DNA of 38,572 nucleotides. Source: a virus. The stretch lies in UHGV virus genome UHGV-0071757; one strand, given 5' to 3'. The stretch's first letter is position 1. The number at the start of each line of letters is the position of its first letter. The position numbers and the translations under genes are program-made. The notes below the pieces were generated by a model that saw nothing but the letters and a program-made list of their open reading frames with translations, was not told where the DNA came from and made no database searches. Below are positions 10,319 to 38,522 of this stretch, piece by piece.

Positions 10319-11019
10319 TGGCTGATTCGAATCTCAACACCCCTGTTATTGTGCAGGCGACGCGGCTCGATACATCAATCCTTCCACGCAATATATTCAG
10401 CCAGTCTTACCTGCTGTATGTCATTAATCAGGGGGCTGATGTCGGCGCAATTGCCGGGAAAGCAAATCAGGCTGGTCAGGGCGCTTACGATGCTCAGGTG
10501 AAAAACGATGAACAGGATGTCGAACTGGCTGACCACGATGCAAGAATCACCGCAAACACAAAAGCGATAAATCTCCTTGAGGTCAGGTTAACAACCGCCG
10601 AAGGGAAGATAGTTGTACTGCGTAGCGATGTTGATTACTTGCTGGATGAGGTTATCGATATTCAGGCGCATCTGGTCACTGTTGACCAAAGACTGGATGG
10701 CGTAGAAAGCGATATATCTGACATTAAGAGTGATTACGTATCGAAAACCGTAACAGAATCGCAGTCTCTTGCGTCACCGCTGGATGTAAAAACATCATAT
10801 TCAGTTGATGGAATTCAGGTCGTTGGAGCAAGGCAGACCGGATGGACAGCGGCCACAGGCACACCACTTCTTGGCTCATTCAACGCTAACCAGTCATACA
10901 CGGTCGGCACTACGTACACACAATCCGAAGTCGCAGCTATCGCTACAGGTTTGGAGCAGGCGCGGCAGCGTATTCTGGCGCTTGAAACAGCACTTAGATT
11001 ACATGGGCTGATTGACTGA
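10318..11019 (+). CDS. tail needle protein (P22 gp26-like)
   Basis: Start taken at the internal ATG 10318 ([25 protein letters not shown]...), giving 233 aa and a TAATG overlap with gp10. Strong resemblance to P22 gp26 N- and C-termini. The 10216 start in the ORF track is an upstream in-frame extension. Confidence 0.85.
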
Positions 11020-11474
11020 TGATTACATTCAAACCAACGCGAAACATCGACCTGATCGAAGCAGTAGGAAATCACCCTGACATCATCGCCGGGAGCAACA
11101 ACGGTGATGGATACGACTACAAACCTGATTGCCGTTACTTTGAGGTGAACGTGCACGGTCAGTTTGGCGGCATTGTTTACTATCAGGAGATTCAGCCGCT
11201 TACATTCGATTGCCACGCCATGTACCTGCCAGAGATTCGCGGCTTCAGCAAGGAAATAGGGCTGGCGTTCTGGCGATACATTCTGACTAACACCACCGTT
11301 CAGTGCGTCACATCGTTCGCCGCACGCAAATTCCGCCACGGTCAGATGTACTGCGCAATGATTGGCCTTAAGCGTGTAGGAACCATCAAGAAATACTTCA
11401 AAGGCGTGGATGACGTGACTTTTTACAGCGCCACACGCGAAGAACTAATCGACTTCCTGAATCACGGGAGATAG
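11019..11474 (+). CDS. head/tail stabilisation protein (P22 gp14-like)
   Basis: 151 aa directly after the tail needle, with a TGATGA overlap. Conserved position. Confidence 0.7.
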   Translation: MITFKPTRNIDLIEAVGNHPDIIAGSNNGDGYDYKPDCRYFEVNVHGQFGGIVYYQEIQPLTFDCHAMYLPEIRGFSKEIGLAFWRYILTNTTVQCVTSFAARKFRHGQMYCAMIGLKRVGTIKKYFKGVDDVTFYSATREELIDFLNHGR

Positions 11475-11476
11475 CC

Positions 11477-12169
11477 ATGTTATATGCATTTAAGCTGGGC
11501 AGAAAACTGCGCGGCGAGGAACCTTATTGCCCTGAAAAAGGCGGGAAAGGTGGCAGTTCTGATAAAAGTGCAAAGTATGCCGCAGAAGCTCAGAAGTATG
11601 CCGCAGACCTGCAAAATAAGCAGTTCAACACCATCATGAACAACCTGAAGCCGTTTACTCCTCTGGCTGATAAGTATCTCGGCAGCCTCGAGAACTTATC
11701 GTCTCTGGAAGGGCAAGGTCAGGCGCTTAACCAGTATTACAACTCTCAGCAGTATAAAGATCTTGCTGGTCAGGCTCGCTATCAGAGTCTGGCGGCAGCG
11801 GAAGCAACAGGTGGATTGGGTTCCACCGCAACCAGTAATCAGTTAGCAACAATCGCACCAACGCTTGGTCAGCAATGGCTATCTGGACAAATGAACAATT
11901 ACAACAACCTGGCAAATATCGGTCTTGGCGCTCTTCAGGGACAGGCAAACGCCGGGCAAACATATGCCAACAACATGAGTCAGATTTCGCAGCAAAGCGC
12001 AGCACTGGCGGCGGCAAACGCCAACCGACCGTCAGCATTGCAGCAGGGTGTTAGTGGTGCTGCATCCGGTGCGCTTTTGGGTGGTGGCATAGCCAGTGCT
12101 CTCGAGCTATCAACTCCGTGGGGGGCTGGTATTGGTGCTGGTCTTGGTCTGCTTGGTTCACTGTTTTAA
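11477..12169 (+). CDS. ejection (internal head) protein, P22 gp7-like
   Basis: 230 aa with a Gly/Ala-rich C-terminus. Position and size as P22 gp7. Confidence 0.75.
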   Translation: MLYAFKLGRKLRGEEPYCPEKGGKGGSSDKSAKYAAEAQKYAADLQNKQFNTIMNNLKPFTPLADKYLGSLENLSSLEGQGQALNQYYNSQQYKDLAGQARYQSLAAAEATGGLGSTATSNQLATIAPTLGQQWLSGQMNNYNNLANIGLGALQGQANAGQTYANNMSQISQQSAALAAANANRPSALQQGVSGAASGALLGGGIASALELSTPWGAGIGAGLGLLGSLF

Positions 12170-12179
12170 GGGTTAATCA

Positions 12180-13595
12180 ATGGCTACGTGGCAACAGGGT
12201 ATTAATTCTGGTGGTTTTCTGGCTGGCATTGGTACGCAAAATGAGAATGCACCAAAGGCAAGCGACATTAACGCAACGCTTGGTCTGATTCGCGAAAACA
12301 ATGAACTGGCTCGATCAGGTGCAAATAACGTTGGTCTGACCGCGTTACGTGGTCTGGCTGGAGTTGCTGATATTTACAATCAGGAACAGCAACAGAAAGC
12401 GATTAGTGCGTTCAATAAGGTTCATGCTGATGCATGGGCTTCTGGTGATCCATCGGGACTATTTAAGTTTGCCCAGGAAAATCCAGCGTTTGTTGCACAG
12501 GCACAACAGGCGTTTTCCGGTCTTAATGATCAGCAACGCAACGATATGGGCGATTTAGCCATGAGGGCTAACGTAGCTCTTTCTCAGGGACCGGAAGCCT
12601 ACAGTAAATTCATTACTGACAACAAGGACAGGTTAAATCGCGTTGGTGCTAATGCTGACTGGATGATTCAGACAGGTATCCAGAATCCAGAGCAGCTATC
12701 ACACATGCTGACTACTATGTCTCTCGGTGCACTTGGGCCAGAAAAGGCGTTTGCTGTTCAGGACAAGATGGCTGGTCGTGAAATTGACCGAGGCAGACTG
12801 GCAGAGACAATCCGCAGCAATCAGGCTGGAGAAGCACTTCAGGCGAGAGGCCAAAACCTTTCCTATCAGTCAGCAATGACTGGGCACAATATCGCAGCAC
12901 AACGTTTGGCTCTGGATCAGCAAGAGTTCGGGTTTAAGATGCAGCAAGCGCAGGAAAAGGCTCAGCAGTTGATTAGCGAAGCACCTAAGCTGTCAGTAAA
13001 CATGGAAAAAGGCATCGAGACGGCTGTAAACAATGCCACAGCATCATCAAACTCAGCCAATTCTATGAGTGCGCTTGCTCAACAGTTCAGAGCAGAAAAA
13101 CCAACGACAGGTTTGTTCGGTAACGCACAGAACATGTTCGCAAAACTTACCGGAAGCGATACGACATTGCGTGATTTGCGCATTCGCCAAAATGCCCTTG
13201 TTAACAGTCAGGTTCTTAAATTCCTACCTCCCGGCCCCGCAACGGATAAAGACGTTGAGATCGTTCGTCAGGGTGCACCAACTGACATGGATAACCCTGA
13301 GACGGTCGCAAGATGGCTTGATGCTATGGCAAACCTTGAGCGACGAAACGCGCAGTTTAATGAGTTTAAAGCCGAGTGGATGAGCGCGAATGGCAACCCT
13401 GGACAATCGCGTAATGGCGGTCAGATATTGGGGTTGGATGTTAAAAAAGGTGAATCATTGGGGAGTGCCGTTAAGCGGTATATGTCAATGAATACTGACG
13501 CAGCGCCAGCACAAGATTCGACACCTTCAGGAGAACCACGGAATCAGGTTGGATCATATACCTCAAAATCAGGCATTCAATTTACGGTGGAATGA
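12180..13595 (+). CDS. ejection protein, P22 gp20-like
   Basis: 471 aa, the same length as P22 gp20. Conserved order. Confidence 0.75.
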
Positions 13596-15433
13596 TGAAA
13601 GTAACTGCAAACGGTAAGACATTTACCTTTCCTGATGGTACGAGCACCGAAGATATTGGCACCGCCATTGATGAGTATTTTGCTGGTCAGGCTGTTCAGC
13701 AACAAACAGCTAATCAGGCCAATAATGCACCAACACGGGAAGAACCATCATTGATGCAACAAGCTGGCGATTGGCTTACTGGTAGTCAAAGTGCAGGGCA
13801 AATTGCAGAACAGGCTGGTCGTGGTCTGGTAAACATACCATTTGACGTATTGCAGGGCGGCGCAAGTCTGATTAATGCAATCAGTCAGGGGCTTGGTGGA
13901 CCCAAGGTTTTGGATGATGTTTATCGTCCAGTAGACAGACCGACAGACCCCTACGCGCAAGCCGGTGAAACAATTGGTGGGTATTTAGTTCCAGGAGTTG
14001 GAACAGCAGGAAGCATGGCTATTGGATCACTGGCAGAGGCAGCAAATCAGAAAGGCGATTTCGCACAAAATGCAGCTAAAAATGCCGGAGTTAACCTTGC
14101 CGCTCAGGGTGTTCTTTCCGCAGCAGCAAAGGGAATAGGGCGTGGAATAACGGCTATAAAAGGTGATATTGCGCCAGAAGTGGCGAAGAAAATTGCCACA
14201 TCAGAATCTATGGGCGTGACACCAATGACATCTGATGTTATCCCGCCGAAAAATGCTTTCACTCGCGGCCTTACTCAGGATGCCGAGGGGGCTTTGCTCG
14301 GGACAGGCTCAAAGCGAGCGGAGCAATATGCAACGCGTAGTAAGCTGGTAAGCAATTATTTTGACCGTTTTGGTGAGTACAACCCTGATGACGTGGTGAA
14401 ATCTCTGACCACCACGTTAAGGGGGCGGAAGGATGCCGCTGGCGCTGTTATCAATGACGTCACCAATAAAATGGGTAATGCCGCAGTTGATACCACAAAT
14501 ACCATGAATGCTCTGAATACAGCGATCGCAAGACAGGAACGGCTTGGGACGTCTGCCAATCAAAGCCTGCTTACATCCTTGCGTAACCTACGTGAAGAAT
14601 TAGCAGACCCTGCAACTGATTTGGATGTTACGTTTGATCTCTTGCGTCAGCACAGAACAGCATTTAGATCTAATGTTCAGGGAGATGCTATGGTCTTCCC
14701 CAACCAGGCAAAAGCAGCTACCAATATGGTAGAGAATGCAATGTCAAAAGACCTTCGTAACGCAGTTGCTAAAAACCTCGGTGCATCAGACGCAGCAAAA
14801 TACCTTAAAGCAAATTCCGATTATGCAAACGTTTATAATAAGGTGCTTAATAAAAACATTGCTAACAAGCTCAACAAGGCAAGCAGTGAAGCCAGTCCTG
14901 AACTTATAAATACCGTTGTATTAAGCAGAAAACCATCTGACGTGAAACGAATCTGGAGCGCATTGGATGATAAAGGGAAAGATGCTATGCGTGCAGCTTA
15001 CGTCAGCAAAATAGCGGAAAAGGCTGGTGACTCTCCAGCCAAGTTCATCACTGAAGTTAATAAGCTGAAATCTCAGTCAGGCGGTGAAATTTACAACACT
15101 ATTTTTTCTGGAAAGCACATGAAAGAGCTTGATGCTCTTCATGAAGTTCTACAGCAAACAGCAAGGTCAGACACCGCAAATGTAGTAACTCAGACGGGGC
15201 AATCGCAAGCCAACAGGATAAGGACGATTGGCGCAACTGCGACTCTTGGCGTATCAATGGGGCTTGAGGCTGGTTTCGGTGCAATGATGCGCTTGTATGA
15301 GTCCAAAGCAGCAAGGAATGCTCTCTTACGTTTGGCAAACACCAAAGCAGGAACGCCAGCCTATGAAAGAGCGTTGAGTAACGCTGCAAATGCCATCAGG
15401 CCGCTGCTTGCTACTGAGGCAACACAGCAGTAA
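13592..15433 (+). CDS. ejection protein, P22 gp16-like
   Basis: 613 aa, overlapping gp20 (ATGA). Size and order as P22 gp16. Confidence 0.75.
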
Positions 15434-15457
15434 CGTATGGGGAATGGGATTCAATCG

Positions 15458-15847
15458 TTAACATTTTCTTTTTACTTTTCCAACAAAAGCTTTGGTTGAA
15501 TCCATATTCCCATAACCAGAAATGGTTTTCGACATTAAAACTGTTCCATTAGGATGTATTACCCATGAGTCGATAACTCGTTGAGTTTCGCCATTCGCGC
15601 CGATTCCAATGATGGAGTTTTTAGACAATGCTTTGTAAGCCATGCCGCCCGCATCCGTCCCAGAATATGTGATACTGGCATCTTCACCGTTTGTCTTAAT
15701 GATGAATGTTCCACTAAAACCATCTTCTTCCGGTTGAAAATTATTTCGTTCTGAATAGCTTATTCCGTGCATATCGCCAACGACCCAGCACTCTGCTGTA
15801 GCCCCAAAAGATATGAATAAGAACATAGCAGCAAGAACTTTCTTCAC
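15458..15847 (-). CDS. secreted small protein (moron at sieA/immI position)
   Basis: 129 aa with GTG start, preceded by a strong SD (AAGGAGG). N-terminal signal peptide MKKVLAAMFLFISFGATA. Opposite strand to the late operon. Confidence 0.6.
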   Translation of the reverse strand: MKKVLAAMFLFISFGATAECWVVGDMHGISYSERNNFQPEEDGFSGTFIIKTNGEDASITYSGTDAGGMAYKALSKNSIIGIGANGETQRVIDSWVIHPNGTVLMSKTISGYGNMDSTKAFVGKVKRKC

Positions 15848-15952
15848 ACCAACCTCCTTAGTTTTGAGCAGGATACCATGAAAAAAGTAAACATCTTTTG
15901 CCTACTTCACATTTGAATGTTTTGTCATTAGGATGTTTCCGGTTTTTTAAAT

Positions 15953-16384
15953 ATGGAAATTGATATGAAGAGGATTATTAGCGTCGTTGCTGGCGCTATC
16001 ATGTTATCTGGGTGCGCAACTATTGTTGGTGATGAAACGCAACTTGTGCAAGTGAACAGCAATCCTTCCGGTGCGAGCTTTAAGGTAAAAGACGAATCAG
16101 GCGTGATTGTTGCGCAAGGTAAGACCCCGCAAGGAGTAACTCTTGCCAAGTCAGATGGTAGTTATTTTGGCAAAAAGAGCTACCAGATCACTATGGAGAA
16201 GGATGGGTACGAACCAGTTACCCTGCCAATCAAAGCCAATGCTAATGGTTGGTATATTGGTGGAAACCTTGTGTTTGGTGGGTTAATTGGTTGGCTTGCT
16301 GTAGATCCATTTAATGGTGGGATGTATACCTTGAAGCCTAAAGAGGCAAATGCATCCCTTATACCGTCCACAAAGCACGACTAA
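15953..16384 (+). CDS. lipoprotein (moron), possibly PEGA-like
   Basis: 143 aa. Lipobox AIMLSGC after a signal sequence (a likelier start is the ATG at 15965). Divergent from the secreted-protein gene. Confidence 0.6.
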   Translation: MEIDMKRIISVVAGAIMLSGCATIVGDETQLVQVNSNPSGASFKVKDESGVIVAQGKTPQGVTLAKSDGSYFGKKSYQITMEKDGYEPVTLPIKANANGWYIGGNLVFGGLIGWLAVDPFNGGMYTLKPKEANASLIPSTKHD

Positions 16385-16400
16385 TAAATGGAACCCACCA

Positions 16401-16652
16401 TCAGGTGGGTTTTTTGTACAAATCCTTCAGCGTATCAAACACCATCTTCTTAACAAGTTCGGACTGCTCATCAGCGATGCGTTCCGCATCGTCTCGATAG
16501 CCTGAAATTTTGGATGGCTTTGATACAGCATCAGTCACTATCTGAACTAATTCTGAATTAAGAGAGCGGCCATTGGATTTGGCTCGCTGTTTTAGTTTTT
16601 CCTTTAATTCGTAAGGTAGCCGCAGATTAAATTGCGGGTCATCTCTTCCCAT
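16401..16652 (-). CDS. mnt: Mnt-type ribbon-helix-helix repressor
   Basis: 83 aa. Arc/Mnt signature DDPQFNLRLPYELKEKLKQRAKSNGRSLNSELVQIV and C-terminus resemble P22 Mnt as I recall it. Confidence 0.85.
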   Translation of the reverse strand: MGRDDPQFNLRLPYELKEKLKQRAKSNGRSLNSELVQIVTDAVSKPSKISGYRDDAERIADEQSELVKKMVFDTLKDLYKKPT

Positions 16653-16715
16653 TCTTGATGCCTCGCTTTTGTGAGTGGATCGGCATCTTATTATCTGCTG
16701 GTTGCATCCTCAATA

Positions 16716-16730
16716 AGACCACAGTGGTCT
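16716..16730. promoter_or_regulatory. putative Mnt operator (palindrome AGACCACaGTGGTCT)
   Basis: Perfect 7-1-7 palindrome about 64 bp upstream of the mnt start, between mnt and the tailspike gene. Confidence 0.4.
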
Positions 16731-16798
16731 CTTTGTTTGATTAATAATACATCACTGTGGCAATGCTGCGGCGATTCCTTGTATCTGGAGCAAATTAA

Positions 16799-19744
16799 AT
16801 GACAGACATTACAGCCAATGTTGTAGTGAGTATGCCTTCGCAACTCTTCACTATGGCGCGTTCTTTTAAAGCCGTAGCCAATGGCAAAATTTATATCGGT
16901 AAAATTGACACTGACCCGGTAAATCCTGAAAACCAGATTCAGGTTTATGTAGAGAACGAAGACGGTTCTCACATTCCTGTTTCGCAACCAATAATCATTA
17001 ACGCTGCTGGATATCCGGTATATAACGGACAGATTGCCAAATTCGTAACCGTGCAAGGCCATTCTATGGCTGTTTATGATGCGTATGGTACACAGCAGTT
17101 CTATTTTCCGAATGTGCTGAAGTATGATCCTGATCAGTTACGACAGCAATTAGAAGACCCAGATGGAGCGAATAAATACCCAAAACTTCAGATAGCAAGA
17201 TGGAGAGACAGTTATGATGTAAGAGGTTGGGGGGCTATTGGTGATGGTGTTCATGATGATACATCAGCTCTATCAGAATTACTTTCTGTTGCAACAGGTG
17301 GTGAAAAGATAGATGGGCGAGGGCTTACTTTTAAAGTATCAACTCTTCCAGATGTCAGTCGATTTAAAAATGCTCGTTTTTTATTTGAGAGAATACCGGG
17401 TCAGCCTCTTTTTTATGCTTCTGAAGATTTTATCCAAGGAGAGTTATTTAAAATTACAGATACACCGTGGTACAACGCCTGGACGCAGGATAAAACGTTT
17501 GTATATGACAATGTCATCTATGCGCCTTTTATGGCTGGAGACCGCCATGGTGTAAATAACCTCCATGTTGCATGGGTTCGCTCAGGAGATGACGGGAAGA
17601 CCTGGACAACGCCGGAATGGCTTACAGATTTACATGAAAACTATCCCACAGTTAACTATCACTGCATGAGTATGGGGGTTGTCAGAAATCGCCTTTTTGC
17701 TGTAATTGAGACGCGGACCGTGAGCGGAAATAAACTGCAGGTTGCAGAGTTGTGGGATCGCCCAATGAGTCGCAGCCTTCGCGTTTATGGTGGTATAACG
17801 AAAGCAGCAAATCAGCAAGTCGCTTATATTCGCATTACTGATCACGGATTATTTGCTGGTGATTTTGTCAACTTCTCAAACTCTGGTGTTACAGGTGTTA
17901 CCGGGAATATGACGGTGACTACTGTCATTGATAAAAATACTTTTACAGTTACGACGCAAAATACCCAGGATGTGGATCAGAATAACGAGGGTAGATACTG
18001 GAGTTTTGGTACATCATTTCACTCGTCACCATGGAGAAAAACCAGTCTTGGAACTATTCCTTCTTTTGTTGACGGAAGCACTCCTGTTACTGAGATTCAC
18101 AGTTTTGCGACGATTAGCGATAACAGTTTTGCTGTTGGCTACCATAATGGTGATATTGATCCACGCGAGCTTGGGATACTCTATTTCTCTGATGCTTTCG
18201 GTTCTCCTGGTAGCTTTGTTCGCAGACGCATACCTGTAGAATATGAGGCGAATGCATCTGAGCCATGTGTAAAATATTATGATGGCATTCTGTATCTGAC
18301 GACCAGGGGGACATTAAGTACTCAACCCGGTAGTTCATTGCACAGAAGCTCTGATTTAGGTACATCATGGAATTCTCTTCGCTTCCCAAATAATGTTCAT
18401 CACTCAAACCTTCCTTTTGCCAAAGTTGGCGATGAGCTGATTATTTTTGGCAGTGAGCGCGCATTTGGTGAGTGGGAAGGAGGAGAACCTGATAACCGTT
18501 ATGCAGGAAATTATCCAAGAACATTTATGACCAGAGTTAACGTCAATGAGTGGAGTCTGGATAATGTAGAGTGGGTTAATGTTACTGATCAGATTTATCA
18601 GGGCGGAATAGTTAACTCTGCGGTTGGTGTTGGTTCAGTTTGTATCAAAGACAACTGGCTGTACTACATTTTCGGTGGGGAAGACTTTCTAAACCCATGG
18701 AGCATAGGGGATAACAACAGAAAATATCCTTATGTTCACGATGGTCACCCGGCTGATTTGTATTGTTTCAGGGTGAAAATTAAACAGGAAGAATTTGTTT
18801 CAAGGGATTTTGTCTACGGAGCCACTCCTAACAGAACGCTTCCTACTTTTATGTCGACGTCAGGCGTGAGGACGGTTCCTGTACCCGTTGATTTCACAGA
18901 TGATGTTGCCGTCCAGTCACTGACTGTCCATGCCGGTACATCAGGACAAGTTCGCGCGGAAGTCAAACTTGAGGGTAATTACGCCATTATTGCGAAGAAA
19001 GTACCGTCTGATGATGTTACCGCTCAGAGATTAATCGTTAGCGGCGGTGAAACAACGTCTTCAGCAGATGGCGCAATGATAACGTTGCATGGTTCCGGAA
19101 GCAGTACTCCACGTCGCGCGGTATATAACGCACTCGAACATCTTTTTGAGAACGGAGATGTTAAACCTTATCTTGATAATGTAAATGCTCTTGGTGGTCC
19201 GGGAAACAGGTTCTCGACAGTTTATCTTGGCTCCAATCCTGTGGTTACCAGTGACGGAACATTAAAGACAGAGGCGGTCTCTCCTGACGAAGCATTGCTG
19301 GATGCCTGGGGTGACGTCAGGTATATCGCTTATAAATGGCTGAACGCTGTCGCTATAAAGGGGGAAGAAGGGGCGAGGATACATCATGGTGTAATCGCGC
19401 AGCAACTTCGTGATGTTCTTATTTCTCACGGACTCATGGAAGAAGAAAGCACAACATGCCGCTATGCCTTTCTTTGCTATGACGATTATCCCGCAGTATA
19501 TGATGACGTCATTACTGGCCAAAGGGAAATACCGCTGACTGATAATGACGGGAGCATCATTGTTGATGAGGATGATAATCCAGTGATGGTAATGGAAGAC
19601 ATCATTGAGCGCGTTGAAATAACGCCAGCAGGATCTAGATGGGGGGTCAGACCTGATCTCTTATTCTATATCGAGGCGGCATGGCAGCGCAGAGAAATAG
19701 AAAGAATAAAAGCTAGGTTAGACTTAATAGAAGGGAAGCACTAA
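16799..19744 (+). CDS. tailspike: P22-like head-binding domain + sialidase-like (endosialidase) domain + C-terminal intramolecular chaperone domain
   Basis: 981 aa. N-terminus [11 protein letters not shown]...[21 protein letters not shown] like P22 gp9. Two Asp-box motifs ([16 protein letters not shown]). C-terminal ~150 aa resemble autoproteolytic chaperone domains of endosialidases and tail fibres. Confidence 0.85.
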
Positions 19745-19897
19745 ATGTTTCGTTGGCGTCAAAAATATGAACTGCTCACATAAAGAAGTAAGTACATTGG
19801 CAAAAAACATTGACGTCAACGAAATTAAATATAAAAATTTAAATGCTTTTTAATGACAAGAAAAGTAACTAGTGGTAAAATAACGTAGGATACTAAT

Positions 19898-20639
19898 ATG
19901 TCAAGACTCAAGACTCAAGACTCAAGACTCAAGACTCAAGACTCAAGACTCAAGACTCAAGACTCAAGACTCAAGACTCAAGACTCAAGACTCGTTTTCC
20001 GTTGATGATAATGGGTCAGGTAATATTTTTGTATGTGGAGATCTTGTAAATAGCAAAGAGAATAAAGTTCAGTTCAATGGAAACAATAACAAACTTATTA
20101 TAGAAGATGATGTTGAGTGTCGATGGCTTACCGTAATATTTAGGGGTGATAATAATTACGTAAGAATACATAAAAACAGTAAGATTAAAGGTGATATTGT
20201 CGCAACAAAAGGTTCAAAAGTTATTATCGGTAGAAGAACGACAATAGGTGCAGGTTTTGAAGTCGTCACTGATAAGTGCAATGTTACAATTGGCCATGAC
20301 TGCATGATAGCAAGAGATGTTATTTTGCGTGCATCAGATGGGCATCCTATATTTGATATTCATAGCAAAAAAAGGATTAATTGGGCAAAAGATATCATTA
20401 TATCTAGTTACGTATGGGTAGGGAGAAATGTCTCTATAATGAAAGGGGTATCTGTTGGAAGCGGATCTGTCATTGGGTATGGGAGTATTGTAACTAAAGA
20501 TGTGCCATCTATGTGTGCAGCAGCCGGTAATCCAGCAAAAATAATAAAAAGAAATATAATATGGGCAAGAACGGATAAAGCGGAGCTAATTAGTGATGAC
20601 AAGAGATGCTCCAGCTATCATGCGAAGCTCACGCAATAA
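19898..20639 (+). CDS. neuO: phase-variable polysialic acid O-acetyltransferase NeuO-like; out of frame (OFF) in this sequence
   Basis: ATG 19898 is followed by 13 AAGACTC heptads encoding RLKTQDS repeats. The ATG frame stops at TGA 20003-20005. The hexapeptide-repeat acyltransferase body (frame ending 20639) lies in a different frame from the ATG. Confidence 0.85.
19903..19993 (+). repeat. (AAGACTC)x13 heptanucleotide tandem repeat
   Basis: Counted directly: 91 nt, 13 perfect 7-nt units starting 5 nt after the neuO ATG. Confidence 0.95.
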
Positions 20640-20700
20640 ATATAAAACATCATGCAGACATATTACCAATATTAATATAAGGTAATAAAAATATAATTTA

Positions 20701-20727
20701 CAAAAAAGCCCGTTGGAAGCGACGGGC
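20701..20727 (-). terminator. hairpin terminator oriented for minus-strand transcripts
   Basis: gcccgt/acgggc stem. The U-tract is only on the minus-strand reading (plus strand has an A-tract 5' of the stem). Confidence 0.4.
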
Positions 20728-21016
20728 ATTAACCGCGGTAATGGATAAATTATTAATGTTTTTAGATTGTGAACGATATCATATTGTGCGGAAGTAGTGA
20801 AGTAACCATGTAAAATGATTGTTTCATAGCCTATGAGACACACAAGGCTTTGTGCTCTTCTGTGGATGTGTGGCTACATGTTTGAAGATCGTTGTGCCGT
20901 ATTTGTGACATACACATGGCAACATCATGCCTCAACTTTCTGTTTGTGCCATCAACTATAGATTAGTGAATGCGGTTAATGCTTGCTAAAACAGATAGTT
21001 ATGATTGGTGCTACAG

Positions 21017-21062
21017 ATTCGTAATGCGAAGGTCGTAGGTTCGACTCCTATTATCGGCACCA
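21017..21062 (+). other. att site: 3' 46 nt of a tRNA-Thr(CGU) (thrW-type) gene, partial, not a functional tRNA
   Basis: attcgtaatgcgaaggtcgtaggttcgactcctattatcggcacca has anticodon loop CGT, T-arm and acceptor 3' strand plus CCA. The 5' acceptor strand needed for a complete tRNA is absent upstream. Confidence 0.8.
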
Positions 21063-21567
21063 TTCTAATGTCTCCCCAAGTCTACTCAAGTATTTAAAAA
21101 CCTCTTATAATCCGCATGTTAGCGCCCCTTTTAGTCTTTTGACGTCTACTTAAGTACCCCAAAATCTACAGTCAATTGGGGGTACTTTTGGGGGTATTTG
21201 CTGTTCGGTTTAGTGGAGGTACCCCCAAGTGAAACTCAATGCCCGTCAAATAGACACTGCCAAGCCAAAAGAGAAGGCTTACAAGCTGGCTGATGGTGGT
21301 GGTCTGTATCTCCTGGTAAAACCTAGTGGAGGAAAATATTGGCGCTTCAAGTATCGTGTAGCTGGTAAAGAGAAGCTGTTAGCACTAGGTGTGTATCCTG
21401 AAGTTACCTTGGCTGATGCTCGTGCAAAACGTGAAGAAGCTAAAAGGGGTATCGCTGGGGGTATCGATCCGATGGAAGCGAAACGAGAGGAAAAGATTGC
21501 CCGGGAAACGCAGTTAAACAACACCTTCAAAGATATTGCCCTTGAGTGGCACAGCAGCAAATTAAAA
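21047..21567 (+). repeat. direct repeat copy A (att core + int promoter + first ~112 codons of int)
   Basis: About 90% identical by eye to 38013-38519. Contains GGGGGTACTTTTGGGGGTAT-type motifs. Confidence 0.85.
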
Positions 21568-22443: not shown

Positions 22444-22565
22444 CTGGTTGCGTATACAGTAGTAGACTTTGAGCGACGAAAGAAAAGGCTGTGTCTAGGG
22501 TCGCTCCCGAAAATCCGTACACCTCGACGGACTGGTACAGCCACTACAGTAGAGGACGCTGAGGT

Positions 22566-23596: not shown

Positions 23597-23794
23597 ATGT
23601 CAAATACGCTTATTCGTTTAACAGAAGTTCAGCGTAGAACTGGATATAGCAAGGCATGGATTTATCGCCTTATGGGGCAAGGTAAATTTCCTGCATCAGT
23701 TAAAATTGGCTCGCGAGCTATTGCTTTCGTTGAGAGTGAAATTGACGAGTGGATTAATCAGCGTATTGCGGAATCACGCGGAACAGCTACCTGA
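23597..23794 (+). CDS. alpA: AlpA-family transcriptional regulator (excisionase-like HTH)
   Basis: 65 aa. LTEVQRRTGYSKAWIYRLMGQGKFPASVKIGSRAIAFVESEIDEWI is the AlpA/Vis-type signature. SD GAGGT upstream. Confidence 0.8.
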   Translation: MSNTLIRLTEVQRRTGYSKAWIYRLMGQGKFPASVKIGSRAIAFVESEIDEWINQRIAESRGTAT

Positions 23795-23871: not shown

Positions 23872-24672
23872 ATGAAATTTCCAAAAACGCCCGTACAGGG
23901 GCGGGGCTTCGTTCGGCCTGAAAACCAGAATCTGCAAAATTTCGGCGAAATTATCCCGATTATTTCCGGCGTTATTGGCGGGAGTGAAACCACTATTGTT
24001 AGCGCCAGAGCGTTACATAAGGCGTTAGGTGTAGGGCGCGTTTTCCGTTCGTGGATCAAGGGGCGCATTGAAGAATACGGGTTCACGGAAGGCGTGGATT
24101 ATGAGGTTGTTGAATATTTGAGCCGACCCGATCCGGTGAGCGCAAAATCTCGCCAGCAAACCGCTCTTGAGTACATCATCACAGTGAACATGGCGAAAGA
24201 ACTGGCGATGGTCGAACGTACCGAACAGGGCCGCGCCGTTCGCCAGTACTTTATCAAATGCGAGGAGGAGCTACACAAGGTAGCGCCAGTGCGTTCCGCA
24301 GCGTTACGCCGGGAACTGAAAGCCCGTATCTCCGTTGCCAGCTACTTTAAGCCGATGTGTGCCGCGCTGGAGGCGTACCGGGCTGAACTGGGTAAAAACA
24401 CACTCCAGCACCACTACACCACGGAAGCCAATATGCTGGCGCGTATCGTGCTGGGTGGCATGACTGCAAAACAGTGGACGCAGGCGAACGGCATCACAGG
24501 CGAACCACGCGACCACATGAGCACGTTGCAGCTTGAGCACCTTTCTTACCTTGAGCAGAGCAATATCACGCTGATTGAGTTAGGCCTGGACTACCACCAG
24601 CGGAAAGCTGAATTAATTCGTCTTTCGCAGCGTTGGTTAGCCCGTCGCATGGAGGAAAACAGCCATGTGTAA
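23872..24672 (+). CDS. AntA-like antirepressor-domain protein
   Basis: 266 aa. Motif ARALHKALGVGRVFRSWIKGRIEEYGFTEGVDYEV resembles the AntA/AntB N-terminal domain as I recall it. Confidence 0.55.
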   Translation: MKFPKTPVQGRGFVRPENQNLQNFGEIIPIISGVIGGSETTIVSARALHKALGVGRVFRSWIKGRIEEYGFTEGVDYEVVEYLSRPDPVSAKSRQQTALEYIITVNMAKELAMVERTEQGRAVRQYFIKCEEELHKVAPVRSAALRRELKARISVASYFKPMCAALEAYRAELGKNTLQHHYTTEANMLARIVLGGMTAKQWTQANGITGEPRDHMSTLQLEHLSYLEQSNITLIELGLDYHQRKAELIRLSQRWLARRMEENSHV

Positions 24673-25344
24673 CGCTCTGACCGTTACAAAAAGAGAAAGC
24701 GCCCCGTTGCCGGAGCGCCTTTGTGAACGAATAGCCTACTGCGCCATATTGCTTACTGTCTACGAGGCAGATTATAGCGTTGTGGTCGCACAGAGTGAAG
24801 GCGCTGATCACCGTTACTACAGCACGCCAGAAATGCAGAATATTTTGCTGCAAAATGTCGTTGGTCACGCTGTCCGGAAAGCAAAAAATTTTGCTGGTGG
24901 CGCGACTGATGCGATTTTGTCAGGTCGCAAGGTGATGATCAATCTGATGTCTAATTTCGTTCTGGATAAAACAAAGGCGACCGCAGAGGGCCACCAGTGG
25001 GAAAGCTACACACTTGAACACATCGCCAACAATGCCAGATTTGCGGCTGGTGGGCAATGTGATCAGTGTGTTGGCTTGCTGGTGGGCTATTCCTGCTCTT
25101 TAACATTGCCATGCCGCGATGTTTTCCAGGTATGCGACCCCATTTTTGTGCGCCTGTACTCTTTAAGGAATTTCTCAAGGATAAACGCACAGGGCGCGAA
25201 TCTGTCTGACTCATATTCGTACGTTATCTTTCTGCGCTGTCTTTTCCGTGCCGGTGATGGTGTATTGGTCGATTCTTTGTTGGTCATTCTGTGTACCTGT
25301 AAAGCAATGCGCCGGAGTTCCTCACACCACGGCGATGATAGTTA

Positions 25345-25650
25345 TTATTCTGATTCTTTGGCCTTGCGGCGCTGGAGTTCTTCACGTGCGACGGTGACGA
25401 GCTGCCCGATCTCCTCGACAGCTTTGACTCCGATTTTTTCCACCTGCGCCAGTGCATTGAGCGAAGAAACCAGGGGATTTTCTCCGCTTCCTTCTGCCTG
25501 GCGGCGGGCGATCTCACCACGCATGGCGGTTACTATGAATCCGGCGTTGCTTTCGCCGTCCAGTTTTACGGATTCCATGCCTTCAAAAGCATCATGTGGG
25601 ATACGAATTGAAATCTGTTTTGATTTGTCGTTGATAGTGTTTTTTGCCAT
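25345..25650 (-). CDS. putative ribbon-helix-helix transcriptional repressor
   Basis: Start taken at the ATG with SD TAGGAGA 7 nt upstream (MAKNTINDKSKQISIRIPHDAFEGMESVKL...). Beta-strand/helix pattern typical of RHH, helical C-terminus. Divergent from the downstream operon. Confidence 0.6.
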   Translation of the reverse strand: MAKNTINDKSKQISIRIPHDAFEGMESVKLDGESNAGFIVTAMRGEIARRQAEGSGENPLVSSLNALAQVEKIGVKAVEEIGQLVTVAREELQRRKAKESE

Positions 25651-25672
25651 GTGCATTCTCCTAAACAAAAGA

Positions 25673-25748
25673 TGTGATTCAGTATACACAAAAAAGAATC
25701 ACAAAAAATACTTGACCTGTGATTCAGTTAAATTTAATTTAAATCACA
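25673..25748. promoter_or_regulatory. two palindromic operators (TGTGATTCAG-N-GAATCACA) in a divergent promoter region
   Basis: O1 25673-25702 and O2 25719-25748, with a TTGACC -35-like hexamer between them. Located between the RHH gene and the 25838 operon. Confidence 0.55.
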
Positions 25749-25837
25749 CCTCAGTAAGAGGATATAAACGACAACGCCCCGAACTGTTTGCGGCAGTAGC
25801 GGGGCGTCTAACCAAACCGTTAAATGAGGTAACGATT

Positions 25838-26203
25838 ATGGCTGGGGCACAGCATACCCAAACTCACCCTAAATTTATATACACCTTCTTGGCGGTGCAC
25901 CGTGATTGCATGGCTGACGGTAAAAACACTGTTCATGTAGCCGCCGATACGCTGGTTGATGCCTGCGAGATGCTCAATGACATGGGCTATATCTCGGCAA
26001 CATGGAAAGGGCGCGAAGAAAACACGTTGTTTATTCAGAAATGCGAAAACAATTTTATCTGGCGTTTTATCGCCCTGAGTACGGCACAACCGCGCGTGAT
26101 TCACATCGAGGCCACCAGCGAACAGGAAGCACGCCAGCAATCTCCTGATGGCTGCGTGATGGTATTCGCTGCCCGTATTCGCCAGGAGGTGGAGCATGTG
26201 TAA
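25838..26203 (+). CDS. hypothetical protein (first gene of replication/regulatory operon)
   Basis: ATG 25838 with GAGG SD 8 nt upstream, 121 aa. It is the in-frame 3' part of the 512-aa ORF in the track. Confidence 0.55.
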   Translation: MAGAQHTQTHPKFIYTFLAVHRDCMADGKNTVHVAADTLVDACEMLNDMGYISATWKGREENTLFIQKCENNFIWRFIALSTAQPRVIHIEATSEQEARQQSPDGCVMVFAARIRQEVEHV

Positions 26204-26420
26204 TGCAACATGGCCTGATGCAGCGGTAGACGCTATCAAAACGCTGATGGATTCACTTATTGAGATTTCTGCTATCGCTGGTGTGGCGCATAAACACGCA
26301 GCCAGAGAATCAGAATGCATCTCCCATTATTTAGCATTTGTGCAGCTGAAAGCCGATCAGGCACTGGATAAGGCCGGAAAAATTATCATGGCTGATGTAC
26401 AGGAGGTGCACCATGCATAA
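26196..26420 (+). CDS. hypothetical small protein
   Basis: 74 aa. Start overlaps the upstream stop (ATGTGTAA). Confidence 0.45.
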   Translation: MCNATWPDAAVDAIKTLMDSLIEISAIAGVAHKHAARESECISHYLAFVQLKADQALDKAGKIIMADVQEVHHA

Positions 26421-26778
26421 CCTGTCAATTTCTGACCTTAACAGCATTCAGTTTGACGAGATATTTTCCGGGCAGCTACTGGTCAACGTGGAGAATGGAC
26501 GCGTGGTAAGTAATTATCACCTGCCGGATGGTGCAATTGCCGGAAGCGTTGAAGCATTGCTGGAACTGGCGGAACGTGCGCGACTGATTAAGCCGTCAAC
26601 GTGCCATCACGATGATGATCTGCATTTTACCGGGTGTATGGTGAGTCACTACGAAAACGGCGTTGAAGTATCCTGCGAACGTCTGCGTGATGATTGCTGT
26701 TTCGGCACACTGCCGGAATTTATCGAATTGCTGACCAGTTGCGGTTATCAGGTCATTCAGGGGGGTAAACATGCGTGA
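26413..26778 (+). CDS. hypothetical protein
   Basis: ATG 26413 with AGGAGG 7 nt upstream. Overlaps the previous stop (ATGCATAA). Confidence 0.55.
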   Translation: MHNLSISDLNSIQFDEIFSGQLLVNVENGRVVSNYHLPDGAIAGSVEALLELAERARLIKPSTCHHDDDLHFTGCMVSHYENGVEVSCERLRDDCCFGTLPEFIELLTSCGYQVIQGGKHA

Positions 26779-27004
26779 TGATCGTTTTAATTCCCTGAAA
26801 CAGGAGTTTGATGGCGCACCGGAAGATACATCGGGCGCATTGTTGAGCATTGCTGACATGATGAAAGCTGCATATTTTCTTATCAATACCATTGGCTACA
26901 AGTCAGAGGGTGAAATGATTCTTAGTATTGCGTCGGACTATGCTGAATATGTGGCAGAGACGCGTTACAGAAGAAAATCTCTGGAGGATGTAAGCCATGC
27001 ATAA
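26771..27004 (+). CDS. hypothetical small protein
   Basis: 77 aa. Start overlaps the upstream stop, suggesting translational coupling. Confidence 0.5.
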   Translation: MRDDRFNSLKQEFDGAPEDTSGALLSIADMMKAAYFLINTIGYKSEGEMILSIASDYAEYVAETRYRRKSLEDVSHA

Positions 27005-27197
27005 TCATGAAGCGCATGTACCCGTAGTGCTTAATGTGCCAGATGATTTCACCGGACGCGTGCTGGTTTACCTTGATAAAGAAAAAGTGAAATCACAATG
27101 CCGACTGAAAAGTAATGAGATTGTGGGTTCTCCTGAATTTTTTTCTGAACTCTGTATTCGTGCAGAAATAAAACCGGAACTGCTGACAGGAAAATAA
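26997..27197 (+). CDS. hypothetical small protein
   Basis: 66 aa. Start overlaps the upstream stop (ATGCATAA). Confidence 0.45.
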   Translation: MHNHEAHVPVVLNVPDDFTGRVLVYLDKEKVKSQCRLKSNEIVGSPEFFSELCIRAEIKPELLTGK

Positions 27198-27201
27198 AAC
27201 C

Positions 27202-27492
27202 ATGAAAAGGAAAAATTCTGGCTTTACTGCCAGCGGTCTCTCTCGGCCTGAAATCAGACACGGAGATATTTACCGCGACACCAGACGTGGGGGACGAGTG
27301 GTTATTCGTCACGTTACGCCAGGCAATATCACCTACCGCCGTGAGGCTTACGAATATGACTGCGTAATGCCGCGCCGTCAGTTTGAGCGTGATTTTATTC
27401 TGGTGGAAAACAAACAACAGGCAGTGGCGAGACGTGCAGCCACGAATATTAAAAAAATCCGGGCAATGTTGGTTGCGGGAGGTAAGAAGTGA
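27202..27492 (+). CDS. small basic protein, possibly DUF4222-like
   Basis: 96 aa. RGGRVVIRHVTPGNITYRREAYEYDCVMPRRQFERDFILV resembles small proteins found upstream of primases in P4-like islands (recall, low confidence). Confidence 0.5.
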   Translation: MKRKNSGFTASGLSRPEIRHGDIYRDTRRGGRVVIRHVTPGNITYRREAYEYDCVMPRRQFERDFILVENKQQAVARRAATNIKKIRAMLVAGGKK

Positions 27493-29294
27493 AAAACGCA
27501 CCGAATTTAAAATATCAGCCGAAGGATAAATTCACCGAGGTAATCATTTTTGCCGGGACGGATGCTTACGCCCATGCTCAACACTGGATTGAAAGCGAAG
27601 GACGAAAACACGGCGATAACGTGCCTCCTGTTTACCTGGGGCCAAAGCAACTGGCAGACCTGGCGAATATCCGCATTGTCGACGATGAACGCCGCTTTGC
27701 GCGTGTCTATCTCGCGGGGGAGATAGAGCCAATCCAGATCAATGCTATTGCTGAAAAGCTGGCGCTGGCTGGTGTACAGGACGCGAAATTATACAAAGGT
27801 ATCACCGACCGGGAGCCGGAAAACTGGCGCGACTACCTGCAACGGATCCGCGAACAGGCAGAGAGTGGGGAAGTTTCAGCGATGAAATTAGCCACAAAAA
27901 ATATTGACCTATCCAGGCCAGCACTAAATCAGATGGGAGCCAGCCAGAGAGGGGAAGTGTTACTTGAATATTATGGAAGAGCACTGGCTATAAATGATGA
28001 TTCTGATGTAGTTCACCATTACAACGGAATTGTCTGGGTGCCTGTATCTGATAAGGAACTCCAGCGGTCTATGGCGAAGATTTTTATTGATGCTGGAATC
28101 AGTTATTCGCAAAACGCCATTAAATTTGCCGTAGACACAATGAAATTGAGCCTGCCTGTTATGGGCGGGGCAGACAGGAATCTTATTGGATTCAGTAACG
28201 GGGTATTTGATACCCGGACGGGAAATTTTCGGGAGCATAACAAAAATGACTGGTTGTTAAATGCCAGTGAATTACCGTTCAGCCCACCAGCAGAGGGGGA
28301 AACGCTGGCAACACATGCGCCGAATTTCTGGAAGTGGCTGCGTCGTTCGGTGGCAGATAATGATCGTAAAGCTGATCGCGTACTGGCGGCATTATTCATG
28401 GTGCTGGCGAACCGGTACGACTGGCAGTTATTCCTTGAGGTAACAGGCCCAGGCGGAAGCGGTAAAAGTGTGATGGCTGAGATTTGTACCATGCTGGCGG
28501 GTAAGGCCAACACAGTATCGGCAAGCATGAAGGCTCTGGAAGACGCAAGGGAACGCGCGTTAGTAGTTGGCTTTTCGCTGATTATCATGCCGGATATGAC
28601 TCGCTACGCTGGCGATGGTGCAGGAATTAAGGCAATTACTGGCGGCGACAAGGTGGCAATTGATCCGAAACATAAAGCCCCCTACTCCACACGTATTCCG
28701 GCAGTAGTGCTTGCGGTAAACAATAACGCCATGTCATTCAGTGACCGAAGCGGGGGGATCTCGCGTCGTAGGGTGATATTTAATTTCTCTGAGGTCGTAC
28801 CGGAGAACGAACGCGATCCCATGCTGGCGGAAAAGATAGAAGGCGAACTGGCGGTAGTGATTCGCCATTTGCTAACACGATTTACCGACCAGGACGAAGC
28901 TAAAAGACTACTTTATGAGCAGCAAAAATCAGAAGAAGCGCTGTTGATAAAGCGCGAAGGTGATTCACTGGTGGACTTTTGCGGCTATCTGATGTCGTTG
29001 GTTAAATGTGAAGGAATGATGGTGGGCAATGCGGAAATAGTGCCATTTAGCCCGAGGCGATACCTGTATCATGCTTATTTAGCCTATATGTCAGCGCATG
29101 GCCTGGGAAAACCAGTATCACTGACACGCTTTGGTACTGATATGCCAGGAGCTATGGCGGAATACGGAAAGGAGTATAAGCGGGCTAAATGCACTAAAGG
29201 CCCGGATAAAGGGCGAGTGATAACAAATGTTCTGTTAGATGATGATGCTGATGGCTGGTTGCCAGCAGCTACAGGGATTAACGACAGAACATAA
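27489..29294 (+). CDS. primase/helicase-like replication protein (D5-N/P4-alpha C-terminal type, P-loop NTPase)
   Basis: 601 aa. Walker A TGPGGSGKS preceded by a region resembling D5_N/primase C-terminal domains. Followed immediately by the iteron array. Confidence 0.75.
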   Translation: MKNAPNLKYQPKDKFTEVIIFAGTDAYAHAQHWIESEGRKHGDNVPPVYLGPKQLADLANIRIVDDERRFARVYLAGEIEPIQINAIAEKLALAGVQDAKLYKGITDREPENWRDYLQRIREQAESGEVSAMKLATKNIDLSRPALNQMGASQRGEVLLEYYGRALAINDDSDVVHHYNGIVWVPVSDKELQRSMAKIFIDAGISYSQNAIKFAVDTMKLSLPVMGGADRNLIGFSNGVFDTRTGNFREHNKNDWLLNASELPFSPPAEGETLATHAPNFWKWLRRSVADNDRKADRVLAALFMVLANRYDWQLFLEVTGPGGSGKSVMAEICTMLAGKANTVSASMKALEDARERALVVGFSLIIMPDMTRYAGDGAGIKAITGGDKVAIDPKHKAPYSTRIPAVVLAVNNNAMSFSDRSGGISRRRVIFNFSEVVPENERDPMLAEKIEGELAVVIRHLLTRFTDQDEAKRLLYEQQKSEEALLIKREGDSLVDFCGYLMSLVKCEGMMVGNAEIVPFSPRRYLYHAYLAYMSAHGLGKPVSLTRFGTDMPGAMAEYGKEYKRAKCTKGPDKGRVITNVLLDDDADGWLPAATGINDRT

Positions 29295-29319
29295 TACGAA
29301 ATTTATAAGCTGAAACGTA

Positions 29320-29660
29320 AAGGTAGACGGTTGGTAGACAGATTCACTTAACCCTCTACCAACCATCTACCAATTAATATTTTGAATTATAAAGATATTT
29401 TCAATGTGGTAGAGAGGTAGACAGTTATTTCTATATTCCTAAACCACGGGGGGTATATAAAAAACAGATAGTTAAGGGGGCATTTTTTAAATTTCTCTTT
29501 TAACTGTCTACACTGTCTACCATTTAGTAAAAATCATTAATTATCAATGTATTAATGCGGTAGACCGTTGGTAGACAGTTTGCAGATTGTTTTTTTGTTA
29601 TGTGTTAATAACATTAAATAAATCAATCAATTATATCGGTAGACAGTTGGTAGACAGTTG
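29320..29660. repeat. putative island replication origin: ~12 GGTAGAC(N)G iterons in both orientations with AT-rich spacers
   Basis: Copies at about 29322, 29333, 29354(rc), 29364(rc), 29408, 29416, 29505(rc), 29514(rc), 29558, 29568, 29637 and 29648. AT-rich stretches lie between clusters. Confidence 0.6.
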
Positions 29661-29665
29661 TAACG

Positions 29666-30208
29666 ATGGGGCAAAGCATGACTAAGCTGACCATTAACAG
29701 AAAACCAAAAGGTATTTACGGCACGCCGCAGAAAACGACGCAGGCGGCACAGGAGCAGGATAAAACCACATCGGCGCATAAAGTGATGCCCGGTAACCAG
29801 AAAGCGCAGCAGAAGCCTACAGGGGCGACACCGTGGCGGCATATGACCAAACGCCAGCGCAAAAACCGCAGGCGCGTTAACCGCCTCACTGAGTTGTGGC
29901 CTGACTTATTCAGCCGGGAAGCACTGAAGCCGCTTAAGGTGGGGATATTCGACGACCTGATGCAGGATCTCGCCGTCAGGGGGCTGGCATTCGGGCCAGG
30001 GGCATTGCGTGCGACGCTGGCATCTTATGCGCAGTGTCCGCGCTATTACCGCGCCTTAATGGCTGGTGGGGTACGCTACGACCTGAAAGGCCAGCCGTGC
30101 GGCGAGGTGACACCACAGGAACAACAGGACGCAGAAACGCGGCTGGTGGCGCTGAATGAGAAGCGCAAACGCCAGCGCCGGGCAGCAAAGGAGACAATAG
30201 GCGCATGA
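29666..30208 (+). CDS. ProQ/FinO-family RNA-binding protein
   Basis: 180 aa. LTELWPDLFSREALKPLKVGIFDDLMQDL...RYDLKGQPCGEV matches the FinO/ProQ N-terminal domain pattern. Basic N- and C-terminal tails. Confidence 0.7.
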   Translation: MGQSMTKLTINRKPKGIYGTPQKTTQAAQEQDKTTSAHKVMPGNQKAQQKPTGATPWRHMTKRQRKNRRRVNRLTELWPDLFSREALKPLKVGIFDDLMQDLAVRGLAFGPGALRATLASYAQCPRYYRALMAGGVRYDLKGQPCGEVTPQEQQDAETRLVALNEKRKRQRRAAKETIGA

Positions 30209-30492
30209 TTCACGACAGCAAAGCGGAAGCACTGGAAGCGCGTGGTCTGTACCGGAGAGCGGCGGCGCGGTGGGCTGAGGTCATCATGCTGGCGAATGAT
30301 GACAAGGCACGGGAACAGGCGGCAAAACGTCGCGCGGAATGTATCCACAAGGCAGCACGCCCACCAGCAAGGCAGGATAATTTCGGGGAGATGCGCGAAA
30401 CCATCAGCCGGGCACATGCCGGGATGGGATTACATCAGCCCAATGGTGAGGCATTCAGGAAATACCAAAAAAAGAACAATTGTAGTCAGTAA
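30205..30492 (+). CDS. PerC-family transcriptional regulator
   Basis: 95 aa. SKAEALEARGLYRRAAARWAEVIMLANDDKAREQAAKRRAECI resembles PerC-type activators. Overlaps the upstream stop. Confidence 0.65.
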   Translation: MIHDSKAEALEARGLYRRAAARWAEVIMLANDDKAREQAAKRRAECIHKAARPPARQDNFGEMRETISRAHAGMGLHQPNGEAFRKYQKKNNCSQ

Positions 30493-30626
30493 CAGAGGAT
30501 GGGATTCTCTTGGTTTTTTGTTGATGCTTTCTGAGGAAATCTACTACGTTGCTGAGCAGATGAATATTCAATTGCATCTGGGTTCCTGATAAGATTAATC
30601 TGAATATTTTCATTTGGAATAGGGAT

Positions 30627-31769: not shown

Positions 31770-31780
31770 ACAATCCGTGC

Positions 31781-31806
31781 AAAGCCCCTTAGTAAGGGGC
31801 TTTTAT
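31781..31806 (+). terminator. rho-independent terminator
   Basis: agcccctt/aaggggct stem followed by TTTT. Confidence 0.7.
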
Positions 31807-31833
31807 ATATTAATGTTCAACGTGGGGGATTAG

Positions 31834-32157: not shown

Positions 32158-32445
32158 TTAACAAGTTATTATCATGGAGCTTGTGGCTGTTAACCTGCAG
32201 TGAGGCGACAATCGTGTATTTATAAAAACTTCCCCTTTTCACTCCCCGCAGCTTCTTCTGCTATTGCCTTTATGTTTGCATGCACCAACATCTGCCATAC
32301 CTTTGCAGAAAAATCAGAGCATTCAGTGCCGAAGGTTGGTTTATTGATGCTTTTCGTTTCATTTATTGCAATTGTCTCTGGTATCATTTCAATTTGTGCA
32401 ATAATTGCAATAATTGCAATTATTGTCATTCAGAAGGGATCATCA

Positions 32446-32881: not shown

Positions 32882-32886
32882 ATCAG

Positions 32887-32912
32887 TAAGGGGCGGTTAT
32901 TGCCCCTTTCCT
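32887..32912 (+). terminator. putative terminator hairpin
   Basis: aaggggc/gcccctt stem. The U-tract is weak (tttcc). Confidence 0.45.
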
Positions 32913-38012: not shown

Positions 38013-38029
38013 TTCCTATTATCGCACCA
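38013..38029 (+). other. second att core: 16 nt matching the tRNA-Thr 3' end (tcctattatcg-cacca)
   Basis: Matches 21047-21062 with a 1-nt deletion, then continues into the duplicated int promoter region. Confidence 0.75.
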
Positions 38030-38519
38030 TTCTAACGTCTCCCCAAGTCTACTCAAGTATTTAAAAACCTCTTATAATCAGTATATTAATGCCCCTTTTA
38101 GTCTTTTGACGTCTATTTAAGTACCCCAAACTCTACAAGCAATTGAGGGGATTTGCTGTTCAGTTTAGTGGAGATACCCCCAAGTGAAACTCAATGCCCG
38201 TCAAATAGACACTGCCAAGCCAAAAGAGAAGGCTTACAAGCTGGCTGATGGTGGTGGTCTGTATCTCCTGGTAAAACCTAGTGGAGGAAAATATTGGCGC
38301 TTCAAGTATCGTGTAGCTGGTAAAGAGAAGCTGTTAGCACTAGGTGTGTATCCTGAAGTTACCTTGGCTGATGCTCGTGCAAAACGTGAAGAAGCTAAAA
38401 GGGGTATCGCTGGGGGTATCGATCCGATGGAAGCGAAACGAGAGGAAAAGATTGCCCGGGAAACGCAGTTAAACAACACCTTCAAAGATATTGCCCTTGA
38501 GTGGCACAGTAACAAATTA
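38013..38519 (+). repeat. direct repeat copy B (att core + int promoter + int 5' end)
   Basis: Aligns by eye with 21047-21567, with a ~12-nt deletion in the GGGGTAC motif region and scattered mismatches. Confidence 0.85.
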
Positions 38520-38522
38520 TAA
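38184..38522 (+). pseudogene. truncated P4-family integrase (N-terminal 112 codons only)
   Basis: Identical to int residues 1-109, then diverges (HSNKL-stop) into unrelated AT-rich sequence. No catalytic domain. Confidence 0.8.

Follow-up and report, generated by a model that had tools for sequence, protein, structure and literature searches.

A 46-nt 3' fragment of thrW, very probably the attR of a P22-like neuO prophage, adjoins a P4-integrase island

The analyzed window (the whole stretch of 38,572 nt) corresponded to the first 38,572 nt of the ENA metagenome scaffold BAEC15-1_SAMEA2580147_METAG-scaffold_1 (910 kb), and the retrieved locus was identical to it over window positions 1-10724. 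The scaffold starts within a prophage, a left truncation that comes from the assembly and is not biological, and attL, the phage int/xis genes and the intact tRNA would therefore lie outside the source scaffold. The features recognized along the window, from the late part of the prophage to the remnant of an older integrase gene, are compiled in Table 1.

Table 1. Features of the window, with their positions, strand and the basis of each assignment.
Feature	Position	Strand	Basis
P22-like prophage, right-hand late part (lysis, terminase, portal, coat, DNA-ejection)	1..20860	+	similarity to phage genomes
Tailspike	16799-19744	+	features of best match include CUS-3 siaK1 endosialidase
neuO acetyltransferase	19898-20639	+	CUS-3/phiv205-1 similarity
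Phage-derived P arm (SfX/HK75/HK446/mEp043 type)	20861..21016	+	sequence similarity to attP regions
46-nt att core, putative prophage attR core	21017..21062	+	equals thrW 3' part, anticodon loop to CCA
Nested 17-nt segment TCCTATTATCGGCACCA, putative island attL core	21046..21062	+	repeated at island right end
Island left arm, tRNA tail to int	21063..21228	+	1 mismatch to EC5 DNA after intact thrW
P4-family tyrosine integrase, full length, 404 aa	21229..22443	+	Arm-DNA-bind_3, Phage_int_M, Phage_integrase
int-alpA RNA motif, directly 3' of int	22488..22555	+	RF02996, 45.5 bits, gathering score 35.8
Small helix-turn-helix gene	23597..23794	+	helix-turn-helix regulator annotation in EC5, IMT5155 and K56-43-un
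D5/P4-alpha-like primase-helicase	27489..29294	+	Pfam / PHROGs
Iteron cluster GGTAGACNGTTGGTAGACAG, GGTAGAC(A/C)GTTGGTAGACAG, just downstream of primase	29322-29660		
Putative island attR core, thrW-tail copy TCCTATTATC-GCACCA, 16 nt	38014..38029	+	17-nt tail minus one G
Left arm and first ~335 nt of truncated integrase gene, remaining from an older island of the same family	38030..38522	+	sequence similarity

Within the prophage, the head and DNA-ejection genes were closest to those of HK620 and vB_EcoP-611R6, and the tailspike and neuO to those of CUS-3 and phiv205-1. Similarity to the latter two phages ended at position 20860, and similarity to the thrW attP regions of SfX/HK446 type began at 20843, placing a joint between modules at 20843-20860. 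The joint of neuO with the thrW arm and core was found, with 100% identity, in 5 of 5,426 complete E. coli genomes (elppa4, E1, VTB96933v, GPEC856 and GPEC403-625), the hosts of which were poultry in four cases and human in one; in the other neuO genomes, among the matches listed, similarity stopped at 20860. The integration site of CUS-3 is argW, and a 2022 PNAS paper mentions a rarer site between pgl and bioA and names no further one (PMC9659370). No published neuO phage at thrW was found, either in that paper, which gives argW and pgl-bioA only, or in a 2026 paper on NeuO, which is without integration sites. The single mildly new and mildly unusual point of the locus is that a CUS-3-like neuO phage carries an integration module for thrW and not for argW. 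This point is of modest epidemiological interest: a capsule-modifying phage mostly reported from argW occurs in a thrW variant as well.

Expression of neuO takes place when the number of heptad copies in the gene is a multiple of three. The tract at 19903-19993 was composed of 13 AAGACTC copies; the frame opened by the ATG at 19898 stops right after it, out of phase with the frame of the acetyltransferase. On the basis of the multiple-of-three rule, the neuO copy of the window is predicted to be phase-OFF because of its 13 heptads. An 819-nt ORF annotated as an acyltransferase occupies the neuO position in VTB96933v.

To the right of the prophage, an island of approximately 17 kb extends from 21063 to about 38029. 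Its integrase gene starts 166 nt past the CCA, on the same strand as the tRNA tail, and the features that characterize islands with P4-family integrases were both present: an Arm-DNA-bind_3 integrase directly after a tRNA tail, and a repeat of that tail at the distal boundary. From its translation and its position after int, we read the small helix-turn-helix gene as AlpA-type, and the iterons following the primase gene are the probable replication origin of the island. Further genes encoded AntA-domain, ProQ/FinO and PerC-like products. Combined, an integrase, a regulator read as AlpA-type and a primase with a probable origin are traits of phage satellites. Searches of the island against Pfam and PHROGs detected no helper capsid or packaging hijack genes (sid/psu/delta, rpp/terS/capsid-remodelling), several ORFs being without any match; a weak small-terminase-like helix-turn-helix match was obtained for 32963-33508 (E = 2e-6).

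Three further observations concern the gene content of the island. The 532-aa ORF at 35641-37239 has as its counterpart in K56-43-un, within an island of 99.4% identity, a 1599-nt gene annotated by RefSeq as GapS1 family, and its product is probably anti-phage cargo at the island distal end; the ORF had no Pfam or PADLOC-2023 match and matched only a PHROG of unknown function, and PADLOC returned no defence-system match for the nine island proteins scanned, the GapS1-annotated one included. The 512-aa frame at 24665-26203 is unannotated in the 99%-identical island of K56-43-un; its last ~70 residues matched a 'transcriptional repressor' in PHROGs and coincide with an Icd-like gene annotated in relatives, so that the long ORF is probably an over-extension. 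Lastly, an intergenic tandem octamer, CAGCTTGC, was repeated seven times at 33531-33586 and flanked by an inverted repeat (GTGTCAAGTTGAG ... CAGGTTGACAC). Five copies were found at the same place in K56-43-un; copy number thus varies, and the tract could be a phase-variable spacer.

The prophage and the island meet at a short sequence, ATTCGTAATGCGAAGGTCGTAGGTTCGACTCCTATTATCGGCACCA (21017-21062), that was identical at all 46 positions to the last 46 nt of the intact 76-nt tRNA-Thr(CGT) gene thrW of E. coli EC5, a reference recognized by ARAGORN and annotated by RefSeq beside proA. The sequence spans the last pair of the anticodon stem, the anticodon loop, the variable loop, the T arm, the 3' acceptor strand and CCA, and in the alignment with thrW its boundary falls one base before the anticodon loop. 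The 30 nt located immediately 5' of it (20987-21016) agreed with thrW at 9 of 30 positions, which is chance level, and pairing with the upstream DNA was possible for only 2 of the 7 pairs of the acceptor stem and 2 of the 5 of the anticodon stem. ARAGORN detected no tRNA gene in the whole window, and no tRNA was detected there by Rfam at its curated threshold; in a relaxed scan of the junction, the Rfam tRNA model aligned to 20991-21059 with 15.7 bits (E = 2.2) against a gathering score of 29, and the low-threshold scan otherwise yielded miRNA and DicF matches at chance level only. The 46-mer occurred once in the window, even with three mismatches allowed, and never in 100 shuffled sequences, and no second long copy of the core (46-mer or 25-mer, up to three mismatches) was found in the window. 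The first-pass annotation, made from the letters of the window, had described this stretch as a 46-nt 3' fragment of a thrW-type tRNA-Thr (CGT) without a 5' acceptor stem upstream; both its coordinates and its description proved exact, and its expectation that no intact tRNA would be called at the junction agreed with the ARAGORN and Rfam results. It had also regarded the lack of a match to any host tRNA 3' end as a reason to reject its reading, and such a match is present in the E. coli thrW.

The flanks of the fragment differ in origin. A four-way alignment placed the DNA to the left of the core with the attP of HK446 and the DNA to the right with the sequence that follows thrW in EC5, the core itself being common to all. 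The left arm was identical to the HK446 attP immediately left of the core and over most of the aligned arm, and shared 96-97% identity over 226 nt with HK75, HK446, mEp043, mEp213 and SfX, whereas the match of P22 (BK000583) covered exactly 21017-21062, annotated in that record as attP core. On the right, a single mismatch, located just past the core, separated the window from the EC5 DNA after the intact thrW over 3.1 kb. Including the TT at 21063-21064, 48 nt were common to attP, attB and the junction. Approximately 100 phage records matched the 46-nt core, and the depositors of HK446 annotated its attP region as "attP; similar to thrW tRNA gene and ptwF". The same 46-mer has been printed as the common core of SfI, SfII, SfV, SfX and P22, all of which integrate in thrW beside proA (PMC3636060). 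At every locus examined, the 46-nt copy was preceded by ...gattggtgctacag, and at the loci bearing a prophage the intact thrW was followed by a phage P' arm, tttaaatcaataagtt, as in the HK446 attP.

With a phage attP arm to its left and the DNA that follows the intact thrW to its right, the junction has the P-O-B' structure of an attR, and we consider it very probable (roughly 0.93) that the 46-nt piece is the attR of a P22-like prophage integrated into thrW by tyrosine-integrase recombination. The integration module is of the SfX/HK446 type and not P22's own, since P22 shares the core only and HK75, HK446, mEp043, mEp213 and SfX share the arm as well. An att duplication left by integration into a tRNA gene, as had been proposed from the sequence, was thus borne out by the identity of the core with the P22 attP core and by the flanks.

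The opposite end of the prophage was located in complete genomes. Strain E1 matched window positions 1-21564 in a single alignment (21.5 kb, 99.7% identity) that spans the junction, and its prophage begins with proA, the intact 76-nt thrW, an integrase gene and a helix-turn-helix gene in the excisionase position. In VTB96933v, proA precedes an intact thrW followed by int, xis and, at the far end, the tailspike, neuO, the 46 nt and an island with a P4-type integrase. The earlier annotation had expected an intact tRNA at the opposite end of the prophage, and this held in E1 and VTB96933v (proA-thrW-int-xis); for the genome of the window itself, the source scaffold starts inside the prophage.

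The right boundary of the island carries a short copy of the thrW tail, detected only by a repeat finder and alignment as it is short and has a 1-nt deletion, and the same variant with one G missing was found at the island right end in IMT5155 and ZF8-1. Repeats of GGGGGTAC, candidate arm-type sites for the integrase, were present both in the left arm (21175-21197) and close to the right end (37930-37952). In EC5, IMT5155 and K56-43-un, the intact thrW is followed directly by the same integrase gene (98.6-99.9% identity), with no prophage between, and the island of K56-43-un was 99.4% identical to window positions 24186-38572. Since the island right end repeats the last 17 nt of the fragment, the island att core lies within the phage core, at its 3' end. 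The earlier suggestion that the fragment doubles as the left att of the downstream island is therefore retained in a narrower form: it applies to the last 17 nt only, as indicated by the copy at the right end and by the position of the island directly after an intact thrW elsewhere. An imperfect direct repeat of ~510 nt, composed of tRNA tail, arm and integrase 5' end, was also observed to bracket the island (21046-21562 and 38014-38517), its coding part being almost identical in both copies; homologous recombination between them would delete the island and leave exactly the E1 arrangement.

Beyond the island lie the remains of an older one belonging to the same family, and then unrelated DNA. 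In E1, IMT5155 and K56-43-un, the integrase remnant stands directly before a MarR gene and vat. The vat island was placed at thrW by Parreira and Gyles (2003), as cited in PMC9781279 and PMC7545054. Three elements are thus stacked at thrW in this ExPEC/APEC-like genome: the neuO phage, the P4-integrase island and an older integrase remnant, the one that precedes vat in related genomes. As a separate observation, the right-end tRNA-tail copy of ZF8-1 (~4660-4710, minus strand) was followed by tttaaatcaagtagttacccca, which resembles the int-side (P') arm of thrW phages; this suggests a still older thrW-prophage scar at the island right end of that strain, and would be another sign of the repeated reuse of the thrW locus.

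A sequence of events that would generate the locus can be proposed. The attP of the phage would include 46 nt that duplicate the 3' part of thrW, beginning at the anticodon loop and ending with CCA, so that recombination within the 46-nt identity block would rebuild a complete tRNA at the int-proximal end (attL), and the displaced original 3' part of thrW would remain at the other prophage end as the 46-nt fragment. The DNA to the right of the fragment would have been downstream of thrW before the arrival of the phage, or would have been inserted there afterwards. An ancestor with the thrW-vat-island arrangement would have gained both the 17-kb island and the phage, with the 46-nt block serving as the substrate of the phage Int and its last ~17 nt as that of the island Int. 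Either order of insertion is compatible with the sequence, because both intermediates exist in other strains (E1 without the island, K56-43-un without the phage) and both routes would lead to an identical final sequence. Sequence identities, boundaries and the matching architecture in closed genomes were read directly, whereas which sites may still recombine, at which point of the core strands were exchanged and in what order the elements inserted are matters of inference. Integrase sites of the anticodon-loop type give identity blocks that extend from the anticodon loop to the tRNA 3' end, and for P4-type integrases the site comprises about 17-20 nt of that end; the 46-nt phage block and the ~17-nt island core both fit these expectations.

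Other origins of the fragment were weighed against attR formation. The window opens a metagenome scaffold that breaks inside the prophage, and the junction sits on a 48-nt exact attP/attB repeat, a place for assembler mis-joins, which favours an assembly chimera in which phage DNA (P-core-P') was joined to chromosomal thrW (B-core-B') through the shared 46-48-nt repeat. Such a chimera is nevertheless very improbable, given that the same P-core-B' hybrid junction was present in 11 complete genomes, that E1 is collinear across it, and that the core is followed by the same flank variant, TTCTAATGTCTCCCC, in ZF8-1. We regard as slightly less probable still that the fragment was made only by the P4-type island, as a ptwF-like pseudo-tRNA, with the prophage merely adjacent to it: the island does use the thrW tail, and a thrW pseudo-copy, ptwF, lies at the far end of CP4-6 in K-12 and is referred to in the annotations of HK446 and mEp043, yet the island's own repeat measures just 16-17 nt and would stand at the distal end, not at the int-proximal one, whereas the limit of the 46 nt is exactly that of the phage attP core, with the phage attP arm to its left. 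The least probable origin, with a likelihood close to negligible, is mutational decay in the 5' half of a second thrW copy, with no site-specific recombination. The weak full-length alignment to the Rfam tRNA model (20991-21059) would agree with decay of this kind, but the break is sharp, with 46/46 identity beside 9/30, and the 5' side is identical to a phage arm and not to a degraded tRNA.

A different question is whether the prophage, read as having its attR at the fragment, and the adjoining island form a functional unit and not an accidental stack. Direct copies of the thrW tail are found at three places (in the intact gene, in the 46-nt fragment and, over 16 nt, at the right end), and with their use the P4-type integrase of the island could excise either the island alone or a single circle comprising prophage and island; it may also be that the upstream neuO P22-like phage mobilizes the island as a satellite. 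A functional unit is unlikely in our view: the island is without recognisable packaging-hijack genes, and the two elements occur separately in other strains.

Read as attR, the fragment defines exactly where the prophage ends on the right (21062/21064) and where the island begins on the left. Its main value is correct annotation, which keeps the 46-mer from being taken for a tRNA pseudogene.

The arrangement of a thrW attR is ordinary, textbook, already known biology, and each of the elements at the locus has counterparts among known systems. CUS-3 and phiv205-1 have in common with the window the tailspike, neuO including the tract of AAGACTC heptads, and the DNA that follows up to 20860 (~98-100%), but CUS-3 is integrated at argW and the phage described here has a thrW-type att arm. 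In common with CP4-6/ptwF of K-12 and with P4-family islands, the island has an integrase that immediately follows the tRNA and is oriented like it, a short tRNA-tail repeat at the distal boundary, a regulator read as AlpA-type and a primase. It differs in that it abuts a tRNA fragment and not an intact gene, since the phage would have inserted between the intact thrW and the island; the resemblance to CP4-6 is presumed, in part from the HK446/mEp043 annotation notes. The location at thrW is shared with the VAT pathogenicity island, as is, in related genomes, an integrase remnant directly before the MarR gene and vat, although vat itself lies past the right end of the window and is known here from those genomes. 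The closest parallel to the junction is the thrW att of P22 and the Sf-type phages, which has the identical 46-nt core and the same host target beside proA, even if P22 shares with the window only that core and not the arm. The layout of these prophages is also the same, with a gene that modifies the cell surface on one side of attP and int/xis on the other, but the gene adjacent to att is gtrABC or oac in P22/Sf-type prophages and neuO, for the O-acetylation of the K1 capsule, in the prophage described here.
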